The position numbers were made by a program, and so were the translations under genes. A stretch of DNA of 64,000 nt, taken from assembly GCF_003991155.1 (NCBI RefSeq), contig NZ_CP031293.1, one strand, 5' to 3'. The stretch is from Escherichia coli (lineage in GTDB: Bacteria > Pseudomonadota > Gammaproteobacteria > Enterobacterales > Enterobacteriaceae). The notes under the pieces are model-generated. The model was not told the origin of the DNA and did no database searches. It worked only from the letters and a program-made list of their open reading frames with translations. Positions 6,447 to 22,736 of the stretch are shown here, piece by piece. Every line of letters begins with the position of its first letter. The stretch's first letter is position 1.

Positions 6447-7274
6447 ATGACATTGCAACAACAAATAATAAAGGCGCTGGGCGCAAAACCGCAGATTAAT
6501 GCTGAAGAGGAAATTCGTCGTAGTGTCGATTTTCTGAAAAGCTACCTGCAAACTTATCCGTTCATTAAATCACTGGTGCTAGGGATCAGCGGCGGTCAGG
6601 ACTCCACGCTTGCCGGTAAGCTGTGCCAGATGGCGATTAATGAGCTGCGCCAGGAAACCGGCAACGAATCACTGCAATTTATTGCCGTACGCCTGCCCTA
6701 TGGTGTTCAGGCCGACGAACAAGATTGCCAGGATGCCATTGCCTTTATTCAACCGGATCGCGTATTAACCGTTAATGTCAAGGGCGCGGTATTGGCCAGC
6801 GAACAGGCGCTGCGCGAAGCGGGTATTGAATTAAGTGATTTTGTCCGTGGCAATGAAAAAGCGCGTGAGCGGATGAAAGCACAATATAGCATTGCGGGTA
6901 TGACCAGCGGTGTCGTGGTGGGCACCGATCATGCAGCAGAAGCCATTACCGGATTCTTCACTAAATATGGTGACGGCGGTACAGACATTAATCCACTGTA
7001 TCGTCTCAACAAACGTCAGGGTAAACAGTTACTGGCAGCATTAGGTTGCCCGGAACACCTTTATAAGAAAGCGCCAACTGCCGATCTGGAAGATGATCGC
7101 CCTTCTCTGCCAGATGAAGTGGCACTCGGCGTGACCTATGACAATATCGACGACTATCTGGAAGGGAAAAACCTACCTGAACAGGTCGCCAGAACAATAG
7201 AGAACTGGTATCTGAAAACCGAACATAAACGCCGTCCGCCAATTACCGTTTTCGATGATTTCTGGAAGAAGTAA
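6447..7274 (+). CDS. nadE: NH3-dependent NAD+ synthetase
   Basis: 275-aa ORF with SGGQDS PP-loop ATP pyrophosphatase motif. Confidence 0.95.
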
Positions 7275-7310
7275 TAATTTGCACATATTGGTTTGTGCGA
7301 AAAAGAGTAC

Positions 7311-7353
7311 TTTGTTCACGCCGGATGCGGCGTGAACGCCTTATTCGACCTAC
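7311..7353. repeat. REP-type extragenic palindrome (GTTCACGCCGGATGCGGCGTGAACGCCTTATTCGACCTAC)
   Basis: Resembles the E. coli REP consensus GCCGGATGCGGCGTGAACGCCTTATCCGGCCTAC. Confidence 0.6.
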
Positions 7354-7472
7354 AAAACTATGCAAATTCAATATATTGCATGAGTCGAATAGGACTGACA
7401 GGCGTAGCACGTCTCACGGTGTAACCTTTGTCATCGCCCCGCCTCTTTTTTAATCGCTCCCCGCCTGTTACA

Positions 7473-7488
7473 CTGGATAGATAACCAG
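7473..7488 (+). promoter_or_regulatory. candidate LexA (SOS) box CTGGATAGATAACCAG upstream of cho
   Basis: CTG-N10-CAG with AT-rich centre, 16 bp upstream of the cho GTG start; cho is a known SOS gene. Confidence 0.5.
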
Positions 7489-7503
7489 CACTCGGAGTCA
7501 ACA

Positions 7504-9004
<1,501 letters not shown>

Positions 9005-9770: not shown

Positions 9771-9916
9771 AAGAAAATTTGATGGAGAGTAATGAGAAAA
9801 TATTACAACACGATGATTTTGCAGAGATTATGAAGAACTATACCGGATGACTGGTGATAAATAAAGCAAATAACCAGGATTAATCTGTATTAATTTATAA
9901 GAAAGTAACTTAATAC

Positions 9917-9943: not shown

Positions 9944-16007
<6,064 letters not shown>

Positions 16008-20061: not shown

Positions 20062-21228
20062 ATGCGCCATTGTGTATGGTTGCTGGGATTGTTATCGCTG
20101 TTTTCTTTGGCAACACATGCCAGTGACTGGCAGGAAATTAAAAATGAGGCCAAAGGGCAAACCGTCTGGTTTAACGCCTGGGGCGGCGATACCGCAATTA
20201 ACCGCTATCTCGACTGGGTTAGCGGCGAGATGAAAACCCATTACGCTATAAACCTGAAGATTGTTCGTCTCGCGGATGCCGCAGACGCGGTGAAGCGCAT
20301 TCAGACCGAAGCTGCTGCCGGGCGCAAAACAGGCGGTTCGGTGGATCTGCTCTGGGTGAACGGCGAAAACTTCCGCACCTTAAAAGAGGCTAATTTACTG
20401 CAAACTGACTGGGCGGAGACCCTGCCCAACTGGCGCTATGTCGACACACAGCTGCCGGTGCGGGAAGATTTTTCAGTGCCTACAGAAGGGGCAGAATCAC
20501 CCTGGGGCGGCGCGCAATTGACGTTTATCGCCCGCCGCGATGTTACGCCACAGCCACCACAAACGCCGCAAGCCTTACTGGAGTTTGCTAAAGCCAATCC
20601 CGGCACGGTTACCTATCCGCGCCCACCGGACTTTACCGGCACGGCGTTTCTTGAACAGTTGCTGATTATGCTGACGCCCGATCCCGCAGCATTAAAAGAA
20701 GCGCCGGACGATGCAACTTTCGCCCGTGTCACTGCTCCCTTGTGGCAATATCTTGATGCGCTACATCCGTATTTGTGGCGCGAAGGAAAGGATTTCCCGC
20801 CTTCGCCCGCGCGGATGGATGCTCTGCTGAAAGCCGGCACATTGCGCCTGTCGCTGACCTTTAACCCCGCGCATGCGCAGCAAAAAATCGCCAGCGGCGA
20901 TTTACCCGCCAGCAGTTACAGTTTTGGCTTTCGCGAGGGGATGATTGGCAACGTGCATTTCGTCACCATTCCTGCCAACGCGAATGCCAGTGCTGCGGCG
21001 AAGGTAGTTGCCAATTTCCTGCTCTCACCCGATGCGCAACTGCGTAAAGCAGATCCCACTGTCTGGGGCGATCCTTCTGTTCTCGATCCGCAAAAACTGC
21101 CTGACGGGCAGCGCGAAACATTGCAATCGAGAATGCCGCAGGATCTGCCGCCGGTACTGGCTGAACCGCACGCAGGTTGGGTAAATGCGCTGGAACAAGA
21201 ATGGCTACACCGTTACGGTACGCATTAA
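20062..21228 (+). CDS. ynjB: ABC transporter periplasmic substrate-binding protein
   Basis: Signal peptide then soluble domain; start at second Met giving 388 aa. Confidence 0.8.
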   Translation: MRHCVWLLGLLSLFSLATHASDWQEIKNEAKGQTVWFNAWGGDTAINRYLDWVSGEMKTHYAINLKIVRLADAADAVKRIQTEAAAGRKTGGSVDLLWVNGENFRTLKEANLLQTDWAETLPNWRYVDTQLPVREDFSVPTEGAESPWGGAQLTFIARRDVTPQPPQTPQALLEFAKANPGTVTYPRPPDFTGTAFLEQLLIMLTPDPAALKEAPDDATFARVTAPLWQYLDALHPYLWREGKDFPPSPARMDALLKAGTLRLSLTFNPAHAQQKIASGDLPASSYSFGFREGMIGNVHFVTIPANANASAAAKVVANFLLSPDAQLRKADPTVWGDPSVLDPQKLPDGQRETLQSRMPQDLPPVLAEPHAGWVNALEQEWLHRYGTH

Positions 21229-22736
21229 TCTTTTTGCTGTGGGCGATGGTGGCGGTGATTTATGCACCGCTGATCCCGGCAACTCTCACGCTGATATCGC
21301 CTGCTTTATCGTTGACACACTGGCAGGCGTTATTTGCCGATCCACAGTTACCGCAGGCATTACTGGCAACGCTGGTGTCGACAACCATCGCGGCGGTCGG
21401 GGCGTTGTTGATTGCCCTGCTGGTGATTGTGGCGCTGTGGCCTGGGCCGAAATGGCAGCGTATGTGCGCCCGTCTGCCGTGGCTGCTCGCCATTCCCCAT
21501 GTGGCTTTTGCCACCAGCACCCTTCTGCTCTTTGCTGACGGAGGGCTGCTTTATGACTATTTCCCATATTTCACTCCGCCAATGGACAAATTGGGTATTG
21601 GGCTGGGCTTCACGCTGGCGGTGAAAGAAAGCGCATTTCTATTGTGGATCTTAGCGGCAGTATTGAGCGAAAAACGGCTGTTGCAGCAACTCATTGTGCT
21701 GGATTCGCTGGGCTACAGCCGCTGGCAATGCCTGAACTGGCTGCTGTTGCCCTCCGTCGCGCCTGCGCTGGCAATGGCGATGCTGGCGATTGTGGCCTGG
21801 TCGCTGTCGGTCGTGGATGTGGCGATTATTCTTGGGCCAGGTAATCCCCCGACGCTGGCAGTAATTAGCTGGCAGTGGTTAACTCAGGGCGACGCCGATC
21901 AACAAACGAAAGGCGCACTCGCCAGCCTGCTGCTGATGCTGTTACTCGCCGCCTACGTTTTGCTGGACTATCTGCTATGGCGTGGCTGGCGGCGTACTAT
22001 TCCCCGCGTAGATGGCGTTCGTAAGCCTGCCACGCCTTTATTGCCAGGCAATACGCTGGCGAGTTTTTTACCCTTAACCGGTGTGCTGTGTGTGGTTCTG
22101 CTGGCGATCCTCGCGGATCAGTCGACGATCAATAGTGAAGCGCTCATCAACAGCCTGACAATGGGGCCGGTGGCGACATTCATCGCTTTGCTCCTGTTAC
22201 TGCTGTGGCTGGAATGGGGGCCACAGCGTCGCCAATTGTGGCTATGGTTGCCTATTTTATTACCCGCTCTGCCGCTGGTGGCGGGCCAGTACACGCTGGC
22301 GCTATGGCTGAACCTGGATGGAAGCTGGACGGCGGTGGTCTGGGGGCATCTGCTGTGGGTAATGCCGTGGATGCTGTTTATCCTGCAACCCGCCTGGCAG
22401 CGCATTGATTCACGGTTAATTTTGATTGCGCAAACACTGGGCTGGTCGCGGGCCAAAATCTTCTTTTACGTAAAATGCCCACTCATGTTGCGCCCTGCGT
22501 TGATTGCCTTCGCGGTGGGATTTTCAGTCAGTATTGCGCAGTATATGCCGACGCTGTGGCTGGGCGCGGGGCGTTTTCCGACGCTCACCACTGAAGCGGT
22601 GGCATTAAGCAGCGGCGGCAGCAACGGCATTCTCGCCGCCCAGGCTTTATGGCAACTACTGTTGCCGCTTATTATTTTTGCCCTGACCGCGTTAGTCGCA
22701 AAATGGGTAGGTTATGTCAGACAAGGACTCCGCTAA
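21201..22736 (+). CDS. ynjC: ABC transporter permease (duplicated transmembrane domains)
   Basis: Very hydrophobic 511-aa product; start at MATPLRYALIFLL overlapping ynjB 3' end. Confidence 0.75.
   Translation: MATPLRYALIFLLWAMVAVIYAPLIPATLTLISPALSLTHWQALFADPQLPQALLATLVSTTIAAVGALLIALLVIVALWPGPKWQRMCARLPWLLAIPHVAFATSTLLLFADGGLLYDYFPYFTPPMDKLGIGLGFTLAVKESAFLLWILAAVLSEKRLLQQLIVLDSLGYSRWQCLNWLLLPSVAPALAMAMLAIVAWSLSVVDVAIILGPGNPPTLAVISWQWLTQGDADQQTKGALASLLLMLLLAAYVLLDYLLWRGWRRTIPRVDGVRKPATPLLPGNTLASFLPLTGVLCVVLLAILADQSTINSEALINSLTMGPVATFIALLLLLLWLEWGPQRRQLWLWLPILLPALPLVAGQYTLALWLNLDGSWTAVVWGHLLWVMPWMLFILQPAWQRIDSRLILIAQTLGWSRAKIFFYVKCPLMLRPALIAFAVGFSVSIAQYMPTLWLGAGRFPTLTTEAVALSSGGSNGILAAQALWQLLLPLIIFALTALVAKWVGYVRQGLR

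Follow-up and report, generated by a model that had tools for sequence, protein, structure and literature searches.

The spacer between nadE and cho in this Escherichia coli genome contains a REP-like palindrome, an inner palindrome nested within an outer inverted repeat, and a LexA-type box, and it raises the question of what the palindromes are and whether they serve either gene. In the window (the whole 64,000-nt stretch that was analysed, to which all coordinates refer), nadE (NH3-dependent NAD+ synthetase, 6447–7274, ending TAATAA) is followed on the same strand by cho (ydjQ, 7504–8391, 295 aa, GTG start at 7504–7506); both were located in the ORF list and their identities were taken from the RefSeq annotation of a 100% identical strain and of K-12, whose RefSeq table (NC_000913.3) has CDS features only across 50 kb around the locus. 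The features described below are given on the plus strand, except the LexA operator, for which no strand is assigned. The spacer is 229 bp long in E. coli, compared to ~90–165 bp in Salmonella, Citrobacter, Kosakonia, and Enterobacter. By sequence reading and repeat computation we found every motif listed by an earlier sequence-only reading of this DNA where that reading had placed it. We conclude that the spacer is very probably a composite of a decayed BIME-1 (7299–7435) in the nadE 3′ UTR and the LexA operator of cho (7471–7490). Both elements are ordinary and previously described, and there is nothing new at the locus; the nested palindromes belong to the normal make-up of a repeat family known for a long time, the LexA box has already been published, and the locus carries little weight for discovery.

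The repeat downstream of nadE

BIME-1 elements of E. coli are also called RIP (repetitive IHF-binding palindromic element) or RIB (reiterative IHF BIME), IHF being a DNA-bending protein, and were reportedly described by Gilson et al. in 1991 and by Boccard and Prentki and Oppenheim et al. in 1993. The early descriptions are summarised in PMC3333891, according to which in a BIME-1 a long L linker, well conserved and frequently with an IHF site, lies between a z1 and a y REP. On sequence criteria, we assign the REP, the outer inverted repeat, and the inner palindrome of the nadE–cho spacer to one such element. BLAST matches to paralogous copies cover positions 199–335 of the query, which are 7299–7435 of the window, and the element is colinear, over ~137 nt from end to end, with a consensus of 85 copies from Escherichia and Pseudocitrobacter. 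Failure of the 137-nt stretch to align with other Y-L-Z1 elements would have refuted the assignment; it does align. Like canonical BIME-1, the element is extragenic (it begins 25 nt past the nadE stop), lies at the 3′ end of a transcription unit, belongs to a multi-copy family, and has its parts in the same order (A flank, Y REP, L linker with the IHF core, inverted Z1 REP, and B flank).

Alignment to the family consensus places the A motif, the left flank, at 7299–7319 (GAAAAAGAGTACTTTGTTCAC; consensus, GACAAAGTGCGCTTTGTTCAT). The Y-type REP (palindromic unit) that follows at 7320–7353, ending in CTAC, differs from the Y-REP consensus GCCGGATGCGGCGTGAACGCCTTATCCGGCCTAC at 2 of 34 positions, a match for which the chance expectation is 0; the first palindrome, which had been called REP-like, is therefore a genuine Y-type REP. 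Its match to the Rfam model naRNA4 (REP325) is weak and on the minus strand (26.9 bits; gathering score, 59.5), and its 3′ arm is altered, reading ATTCGAC instead of the canonical ATCCGGC. GTTCAC of the A flank pairs with GTGAAC in the Y REP to give a perfect 10-bp hairpin at 7314–7337, whose arms are the palindrome GTTCACGCCG/CGGCGTGAAC (7314–7323/7328–7337). The L linker (7354–7388) is identified by a match to the Rfam model RF02751, discussed below, and by an exact 20-mer, TGCAAATTCAATATATTGCA, at 7361–7380, which comprises the inner palindrome TGCAA-N10-TTGCA, would occur by chance 0.01 times in the 64-kb window, and is identical in 90+ repeat copies, among them canonical ones such as that between katE and chbG of K-12 (L093:21165–21300). 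Consensus alignment and the orthologous loci identify 7389–7417 as an eroded, inverted Z1 REP (ATAGGACTGACAGGCGTAGCACGTCTCAC; consensus, GTAGGCCTGATAAGCGTAGCGCATCAGGC), colinear with the consensus and identical to it at 20 of 29 positions, compared with 23 of 29 in K-12. The B motif, the right flank, was likewise placed by consensus alignment, at 7418–7435 (GGTGTAACCTTTGTCATC; consensus, AATTTTGCGTTTGTCATC). A small hairpin just 3′ of the nadE stop (GCACA-N8-TGTGC, 7281–7298), which RNA folding predicts, falls outside the repeat and is locus-specific; strain wlxctx60 and Escherichia sp. E1V33 have different sequence in its place. We also considered a second, inverted L-like remnant at 7276–7292 (repeats D1 and I1; 73–76% identity), and dropped it because no Rfam or HMM match backs it.

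The family is widespread. In >85 copies the 20-mer has a Y REP on one side and an inverted Z1 REP on the other, and the outer flanks are also the same; these copies come from E. coli, E. albertii, E. whittamii, other Escherichia, and Pseudocitrobacter. As the copies behind the consensus were collected by exact match to the 20-mer, its conservation among them is circular; the evidence that does not depend on this choice consists of the outer flanks common to the 85-copy consensus (CTTTGTTCA(C/T) on the left and TTTGTCATC on the right), the BLAST count of the 61-nt core (a median of 26 places per E. coli genome, which is an undercount), the Rfam model, and 18 variant copies that an HMM search turned up.

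The nested palindromes follow from this anatomy. The inner one (ATGCAA at 7360–7365, a 10-nt spacer, and TTGCAT at 7376–7381) makes up, as judged from the alignments, the conserved L-linker core. The outer one, TTATTCGAC at 7341–7349 and GTCGAATAG at 7384–7392, is exactly complementary across 8 nt (TATTCGAC/GTCGAATA) and as RNA would form 10 pairs (7340–7349 with 7384–7393, one of them G·U). In it, the Y REP supplies one side with its 3′ arm, and the other side consists of the L-linker end and the opening bases of the eroded Z1 REP, a register that departs from that of canonical BIME-1 in that the Y arm pairs with the linker end and ATAGG; within the composite explanation, we hold with high confidence that the outer repeat descends from two REP arms facing each other over the linker. 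Folding of the family consensus gives the same nested topology as the window copy. Both repeats had been reported correctly for this strain by the sequence-only reading, which could attach them to no feature it could name; they are explained, with the REP, as parts of a BIME-1. Its further suggestion of a protein-binding site or RNA structure was broadly right, but as a property of a multi-copy family and not of a locus-specific regulator of nadE or cho. As a rule for reading such DNA, a REP followed by a TGCAA-N10-TTGCA palindrome is to be taken as a single BIME-1 unit.

IHF binding at the L linker is a property of the family (PMC3333891), and by that analogy 7366–7378 (ATTCAATATATTG), preceded by an A-rich CAAAAC at 7353–7358, is the putative IHF site of this copy. 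The core was found by pattern matching and agrees with 8 of the 9 specified positions of WATCAANNNNTTR. The IHF consensus by itself does no better than chance in the window (78 sites, 64 expected), and the assignment is therefore based on the role of the L linker as the part of BIME-1 that binds IHF. Of 13 variant L cores, 12 retain TCAA-N4-TTG.

LexA operator and probable promoter of cho

The operator consensus of gamma-proteobacterial LexA is TACTG(TA)5CAGTA. The SOS box of cho, CACTGGATAGATAACCAGCA at 7471–7490, has the core CTGGATAGATAACCAG (CTG-N10-CAG, 7473–7488), which had been called a LexA operator from sequence inspection. The weight-matrix scoring proposed at the time as a check bears this out: with a matrix built from 17 other published boxes (training range, 13.5–28.2 bits), 7471–7490 scores 19.3 bits and ranks first of 63,981 positions in the window, the next best reaching 11.4. 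The CTG-N10-CAG pattern alone is unspecific, with 29 sites in the window against 12.65 expected, an excess over shuffles that probably reflects the common codons CTG and CAG. A heterology-type index derived from the same 17 sites is 7.9 for the cho box, compared with 0.3–9.4 in the training set, making it a middling box; in both half-sites its fourth position is G instead of T, which is also the case in ruvA. The box lies just 5′ of the gene for a DNA-damage-induced repair nuclease. The box was described as directly abutting the cho start. It is close to the start but does not strictly abut it, because 15 nt (7489–7503) that include the Shine-Dalgarno sequence GGAG (7494–7497, 6 nt before the GTG and invariant in the orthologue alignment) separate its core from the GTG.

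We identify 7471–7490, on the combined grounds of matrix score, publication, and conservation, as the published LexA operator of cho. Its sequence is identical to the K-12 ydjQ/cho box in Table 4 of PMC3009722, where cho is UV-induced, and in Table 1 of PMC6590174 it stands under ‘known SOS box’, with reference to Fernandez De Henestrosa et al. 2000. In Salmonella, ydjQ has one box with a heterology index of 6.69 and is induced 3.33-fold by nalidixic acid (PMC8072944 Table 1). The position of the box is kept in Salmonella, Citrobacter, Kosakonia, Enterobacter, and sister Escherichia species (five genera with Escherichia); at six other loci the best LexA site, scoring 15.3–21.9 bits, is at the same distance from the start codon. 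CTG, CAG, GGAG, GTG, and the −10 positions TA.ACT are invariant in the orthologue alignment, and the 43-nt operator segment of K-12 is found unchanged in 4704 of 5426 E. coli genomes. A literature search for LexA ChIP at cho or nadE returned nothing relevant.

The box overlaps a conserved TGnTAYACT motif, which we take as a putative extended −10, TGTTACACT (7466–7474; TG at 7466–7467 and hexamer TACACT at 7469–7474). Six of 7 orthologues have TGyTAyACT, in which G, T, A, A, C, and T are invariant, and this conservation suggests that the operator overlaps the −10 of the cho promoter; a simple −35/−10 scan of 7200–7600 gave no canonical sigma-70 promoter. A LexA dimer on 7471–7490 would cover the probable extended −10 and the start site, predicted at about 7481, in which case cho would be transcribed only after RecA-stimulated self-cleavage of LexA. 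Further upstream, a T6 run (7446–7451, within CTCTTTTTTAATC) occupies alignment columns that are invariant among genera, and probably represents an ancestral nadE terminator's U-tract, the upstream portion of the cho promoter, or both.

Decay of the repeat and its possible roles

The main departure of this copy from canonical BIME-1 is the erosion of its Z1 REP, where GTAG has become ATAG. The Z1 hairpin is not formed, the stem GCCTGAT/ATCAGGC having become GACTGAC/GTCTCAC, and the Y stem is weakened by one C·A mismatch and one G·T pair; the predicted folds of the window copy use other pairings than the REP hairpins. We class the copy as a decayed BIME-1 because its two REP units can no longer both form their own hairpins, and REP-type functions may accordingly be reduced in it. 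An intact Z1 (GTAGGCCTGATAAG.GTAGCGCATCAGGC) is present at the orthologous loci of E. whittamii (L061) and Escherichia sp. E1V33 (L041), which together with the colinear identity shows that 7389–7417 descends from a Z1 REP, and the eroded form is found in all sampled E. coli. The L linker is absent from the nadE–cho spacer of the Salmonella, Citrobacter, Kosakonia, and Enterobacter loci examined. Within E. coli, the BIME segments are identical to K-12 in 3536 and 3304 of the 5426 genomes, compared to 4704 for the operator segment, and this greater polymorphism is consistent with weak or no selection on the repeat.

As double-stranded DNA, the repeat would be expected, by analogy with the family, to be bound and bent by IHF; if transcribed, it could form stable 3′ hairpins that protect nadE mRNA from 3′ exonucleases and reduce read-through into cho. 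REPs between genes of the same direction have been found to act as stabilisers of the upstream mRNA and as partial Rho-dependent terminators (bioRxiv 10.64898/2026.03.23.713779; PMC6061677). The model that we borrow for nadE–cho is this dual role as proposed for REP325/naRNA4 (bioRxiv 10.64898/2026.03.23.713779), a BIME-2-type Y-l-Z2 array at yjdM–yjdN that likewise places a REP-family element between two genes of the same direction; in REP325, however, six units with Z2 REPs are arranged in tandem and joined by short linkers, whereas nadE–cho has a single Y-L-Z1 unit with a long IHF linker.

We consider it unlikely that the decayed BIME-1 has been co-opted as a cis-regulatory module, acting as a terminator or insulator that keeps constitutive nadE transcription from bypassing LexA, and/or as an IHF bend, ~100 bp upstream of the cho promoter, that tunes cho. 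Its placement between a housekeeping gene and an SOS promoter of the same orientation would suit such a role. So would the lack of a canonical intrinsic terminator in E. coli: a scan of 7200–7600 found none, and no hairpin adjoins the T6 run, which is preceded by unpaired CATCGCCCCGCCTC, whereas the Enterobacter hormaechei orthologue has at the equivalent place a hairpin of −21.4 kcal/mol directly before the T run, that is, an intrinsic terminator. In each of the five genera examined there are REP-type hairpins after nadE, the full 189-nt 3′ region has a good predicted fold (z = −4.05), and same-direction REPs are linked to upstream-biased expression, with REP325 a partial Rho-dependent terminator (bioRxiv 10.64898/2026.03.23.713779). 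Against co-option stand the decay of Z1 and the higher variability of the BIME segments among strains than of the operator, and less canonical REPs give weaker effects (bioRxiv 10.64898/2026.03.23.713779). None of the three stems shows covariation, the observed values in 10 orthologues being equal to the shuffled means, a result that argues neither for nor against structure because the ten sequences are too similar. Less probable again is that the eroded element would be a working insulator against leakage of constitutive nadE transcription past LexA, with IHF bending acting additionally on the SOS promoter. The nadE–cho pair is a clean natural case for studying whether a REP element in decay can go on insulating a tightly repressed SOS gene from a housekeeping gene that precedes it.

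Small-RNA and dedicated-operator readings

A different origin for the nested palindromes would be a discrete small or structured RNA of the Rfam ES036/CssrF type with its own function, which we regard as very improbable. The 43-nt model RF02751 (ES036) does align to 7354–7396, including the TGCAA/TTGCA hairpin, at 36.2 bits; the orthologue in K-12 scores 42.9 bits, above the gathering score of 37.6, and a 61-nt stretch folds better than its shuffles (z = −4.29). The window copy, however, is 1.4 bits under that threshold, and the model matches every canonical BIME-1 linker tested, at 44–59 bits, and so models a repeat of ~26 or more copies per genome and not one gene. RF02751 is in effect the L linker of BIME-1 plus GTAGGCCU, and a match to it therefore means a BIME-1 copy rather than an expressed sRNA gene, which is also how matches to this model elsewhere are to be read. 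A simple scan found no flanking promoter or terminator, the orthologues are without covariation as noted above, and in the 13 variant L cores the changes in the arms are one-sided and never compensated, even as TCAA-N4-TTG is retained in 12 of them. A literature search on ES036/CssrF returned nothing relevant.

That a dedicated dimeric transcription factor controls nadE or cho with ATGCAA-N10-TTGCAT as its operator, as an intergenic 6-bp inverted repeat with a 10-bp AT-rich spacer might suggest, is scarcely credible: the sixth pair (A7360–T7381) is confined to this haplotype among 10 orthologues, nine of which have G by 7382 to give TTGCAG, BIME-1 copies at unrelated loci all have the 5-bp palindrome, the site is on the 3′ side of nadE and ~100 bp 5′ of the cho promoter, and it is missing from the spacers of Salmonella, Citrobacter, Kosakonia, and Enterobacter, which retain the LexA box. 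Conservation across strains, on which the earlier reading had made its palindromes depend, holds for the five pairs of TGCAA/TTGCA but not for the sixth.

We note, regarding the outer stem of the BIME-1, that its re-registered form arose by two lineage-specific G-to-A changes, at 7348 and 7389, each of which turned a G·T pair into an A·T pair. The pattern fits palindrome-templated mutation (‘quasipalindrome correction’) in a decaying repeat.

A single BIME-1 between nadE and cho

The 229-bp spacer between nadE (6447-7274, plus strand in the ORF list) and cho (ydjQ; 7504-8391, plus strand, GTG start) is 100% identical to that of strain FDAARGOS_497, about 95% identical to that of K-12, and found in 5,423 of 5,426 complete E. 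coli genomes. The window, a piece of the chromosome, also carries osmE (minus strand), ves and spy; cho, ending at 8391, converges on minus-strand ves (whose stop codon occupies plus-strand coordinates 8351-8353) with a 41-bp overlap (8351-8391), likewise present in the K-12 annotation.

The REP palindrome that the sequence-only reading placed in this spacer is there, as the perfect 10-bp palindrome GTTCACGCCG/CGGCGTGAAC (7314-7337); the nested palindromes, which it could not assign to any feature it could name, form with the REP a single element, a BIME-1. The original papers reportedly called such elements RIB and RIP. At 7320-7353, 2 of 34 positions depart from the Y-type REP consensus; the inner palindrome is the L-linker core; BLAST matches to the paralogous copies cover 7299-7435 of the window, and over this interval the window is colinear with a consensus derived from 85 copies. 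The 20-mer TGCAAATTCAATATATTGCA (7361-7380; chance expectation in the window 0.01) was located in 84 DNA stretches in a search that covered each species by one genome. Five unrelated chance matches aside, all are Escherichia, Pseudocitrobacter or tiny contigs, the last probably contaminants, and every non-chance copy shares the surroundings ...CAAAGTGCGCTTTGTTCATGCCGGATGCGGCGTGAACGCCTTATCCGGCCTAC-AAAATCA-20-mer-GAAACCTT-GTAGGCCTGATAAGCGTAGCGCATCAGGC-AATTTTGCGTTTGTCATCAGTCT. The median number of places matching the 61-nt core in an E. coli genome is 26, itself an undercount, and a canonical K-12 copy lies about 6 kb away in the katE/chbG interval (21165-21300 of the K-12 stretch L093). We class the element as BIME-1 because its architecture is that of the published definition: inversely oriented y and z1 REPs with a long, well conserved L linker between them, frequently carrying an IHF site (PMC3333891).

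The outer inverted repeat was correctly located, but its two 9-mers pair at only 8 positions plus one T.G. It descends from the head-to-head REP arms, which in the family consensus pair CTTATCCGGCCTAC with GTAGGCCTGATAAG around the L linker. Window and consensus are predicted to fold with the same nested topology, including the alternative hairpin GTTCA(U/C)GCCGG...CGGCGUGAAC; in the RNA fold the outer register is shifted here, the mutated Y arm CTTATTCGAC pairing with GTCGAATAGG, which runs from the linker end into the beginning of the Z1 remnant. TATTCGAC (7342-7349) is the exact complement of GTCGAATA (7384-7391). Within the outer stem (7340-7349/7384-7393), two derived G-to-A changes in E. 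coli (7348 and 7389, relative to E. whittamii and Escherichia sp. E1V33) each turn a G.T pair into A.T, which could reflect palindrome-templated mutation or chance (n = 2); the stem is broken again in strains EC12 (T7344C) and wlxctx60 (canonical Y arm).

Two short contigs, L011 (Desulfosporosinus sp. OT, 262 bp) and L068 (Methylobacterium frigidaeris, 261 bp), hold a complete E. coli-type BIME-1, most likely E. coli contamination of these unrelated-genus assemblies. BIME-1 is said to occur in single copy (PMC3333891), whereas we observed tandem Y-L-Z arrays in the stretches L078 (2650-3550; 7 copies, 107-bp spacing), L084 (1-960), L085 (230-1020) and L080 (Escherichia sp. MOD1-EC7003; 13900-14680), the periods of the other arrays being about 115 bp and about 162 bp.

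Decay and distribution of the repeat

In E. whittamii and Escherichia sp. E1V33 the orthologous spacer contains an intact Z1, GTAGGCCTGATAAG(T/C)GTAGCGCATCAGGC. All eight E. coli sampled have the eroded form ATAGGCCTGACAGGCGTAGCACGTCAGAC, with additional changes in the window strain, whose remnant retains 20 of 29 consensus positions. The osmE-nadE-cho order also holds in Salmonella, C. freundii, Kosakonia and Enterobacter hormaechei, whose spacers, about 90-165 bp long, lack the L linker. At this site the L-containing BIME-1 is thus confined to the Escherichia lineage, and in E. coli it is eroding. The identity, limits, decay and phylogenetic distribution of the element are results of the present analysis. 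REP-type hairpins lie 3' of nadE in the same four non-Escherichia loci (L094 1408-1500, L095 1370-1500, L096 1336-1500, L097 1413-1500).

Like-for-like 43-nt queries of the K-12 haplotype against 5426 E. coli genomes found identity in 3536/5426 for the linker segment, 3304/5426 for the Z1/B segment and 4704/5426 for the operator segment. A different segment of about 45 nt (AACAGTGCGGCCTCCCCGCCTGAGATTGTCGACACC...) separates the nadE stop from the repeat in both wlxctx60 (L087, 362-445) and Escherichia sp. E1V33 (L041, 58-130), in a region corresponding to window 7275-7340; the Y 3' arm of wlxctx60 is canonical, and its spacer is a recombinant haplotype segregating in E. coli.

Putative IHF site, RNA structure and possible roles

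The inner palindrome ATGCAA-N10-TTGCAT lies at 7360-7381 as described, but orthologue comparison makes its sixth pair private to the window haplotype. The sequence-only reading had left the choice between a protein-binding site and RNA structure. We collected 18 further copies with a profile HMM rather than an exact pattern, which gave 13 distinct L cores: TCAA-N4-TTG is unbroken in 12 of 13, and palindrome-arm substitutions are one-sided and in no case compensated, breaking a pair in 7 of 13 variants. Covariation beyond shuffles was absent from three stems across 10 orthologues. The evidence, from a small sample, leans towards constraint on a double-stranded IHF site rather than on a hairpin. 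IHF binding to L linkers is documented (PMC3333891); because the consensus match here (ATTCAATATATTG, 8/9 positions) does not stand out from chance in the window, it is family membership that suggests that IHF would bind 7360-7385.

Between same-direction genes, REP elements stabilise the transcript from its 3' end and bring about partial Rho-dependent termination (bioRxiv 10.64898/2026.03.23.713779; PMC6061677), and the 189-nt 3' region has a predicted fold z of -4.05. By analogy, the transcribed repeat may shield nadE mRNA and curb read-through into cho. Co-option of the repeat as an insulator or IHF-bend element is unlikely, a role weakened by its decayed and polymorphic state.

Rfam family RF02751, 'ES036 (CssrF) sRNA', scores 36.2 bits against 7354-7396 (gathering score 37.6), 42.9 against the K-12 orthologue and 44-59 against canonical BIME-1 copies. 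It matches every L linker tested (among them L065 5389-5431, L037 6735-6777, L066 2551-2593, E. whittamii L061 3411-3453 and L001 3366-3408), and is in effect a model of the linker, in practice annotating a repeat with dozens of copies per genome and not one sRNA gene. Since the motif is common to dozens of unrelated loci, lacks transcription signals of its own and is missing from the nadE-cho spacer of other genera, where the LexA box is retained, a discrete sRNA is very improbable here and a dedicated transcription-factor operator more improbable still.

The LexA operator and putative promoter of cho

The LexA-type box CTGGATAGATAACCAG sits at 7473-7488, 15 nt from the cho GTG at 7504, and matrix scoring bears out its identity as an operator. 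Against a matrix of 17 other LexA boxes (PMC3009722 Table 4; training range 13.5-28.2 bits), CACTGGATAGATAACCAGCA (7471-7490) scores 19.3 bits, within the training range and first of 63,981 positions (runner-up 11.4), a value attained anywhere in 1 of 50 shuffled windows. The best site in each of six other loci (Salmonella, C. freundii, Kosakonia, Enterobacter hormaechei, E. whittamii and Escherichia sp. E1V33) scores 15.3-21.9 bits at an identical offset from the start codon. CACTGGATAGATAACCAGCA is exactly the cho motif in the list of UV-induced genes (PMC3009722 Table 4), cho (ydjQ) is entered as a 'known SOS box' (PMC6590174), and Salmonella ydjQ, with one box of heterology index 6.69, is induced 3.33-fold by nalidixic acid (PMC8072944 Table 1). 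That LexA controls cho and that DNA damage induces it is taken from the literature; the present analysis established what the box is, that it stands out statistically and that it is conserved. The finding is genuine but ordinary, and already known: both BIME-1 and LexA boxes are long-described classes, and the cho box is published.

An alignment of seven orthologous cho upstream regions has as invariants CTG, CAG, the Shine-Dalgarno GGAG, GTG, a TA.ACT hexamer with its preceding G, and an upstream CTTTTT.AA.C; TGyTAyACT occurs in 6/7. A simple scan of the spacer region returned no promoter. We suggest that TGTTACACT (7466-7474) is an extended -10 promoter, its hexamer sharing 4 nt with the left operator half; with cho transcription predicted to start near 7481, bound LexA would occlude the start and so block this putative promoter. 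The T-run within this invariant upstream motif (7446-7451) has no adjoining hairpin in E. coli; in Enterobacter hormaechei a strong hairpin followed by T6 forms a canonical intrinsic terminator (-21.4 kcal/mol).

The runner-up matrix site, GACTGGTGATAAATAAAGCA (9849-9868, upstream of spy), is probably due to chance, since it lacks the CAG half-site and its 11.4 bits fall under all 17 training boxes. CTG-N10-CAG by itself is unspecific: the window has 29 sites against 12.65 expected from dinucleotide shuffles, none of which reached 29, and the excess is probably an effect of codon usage, CTG and CAG being very common codons, rather than a set of LexA sites.
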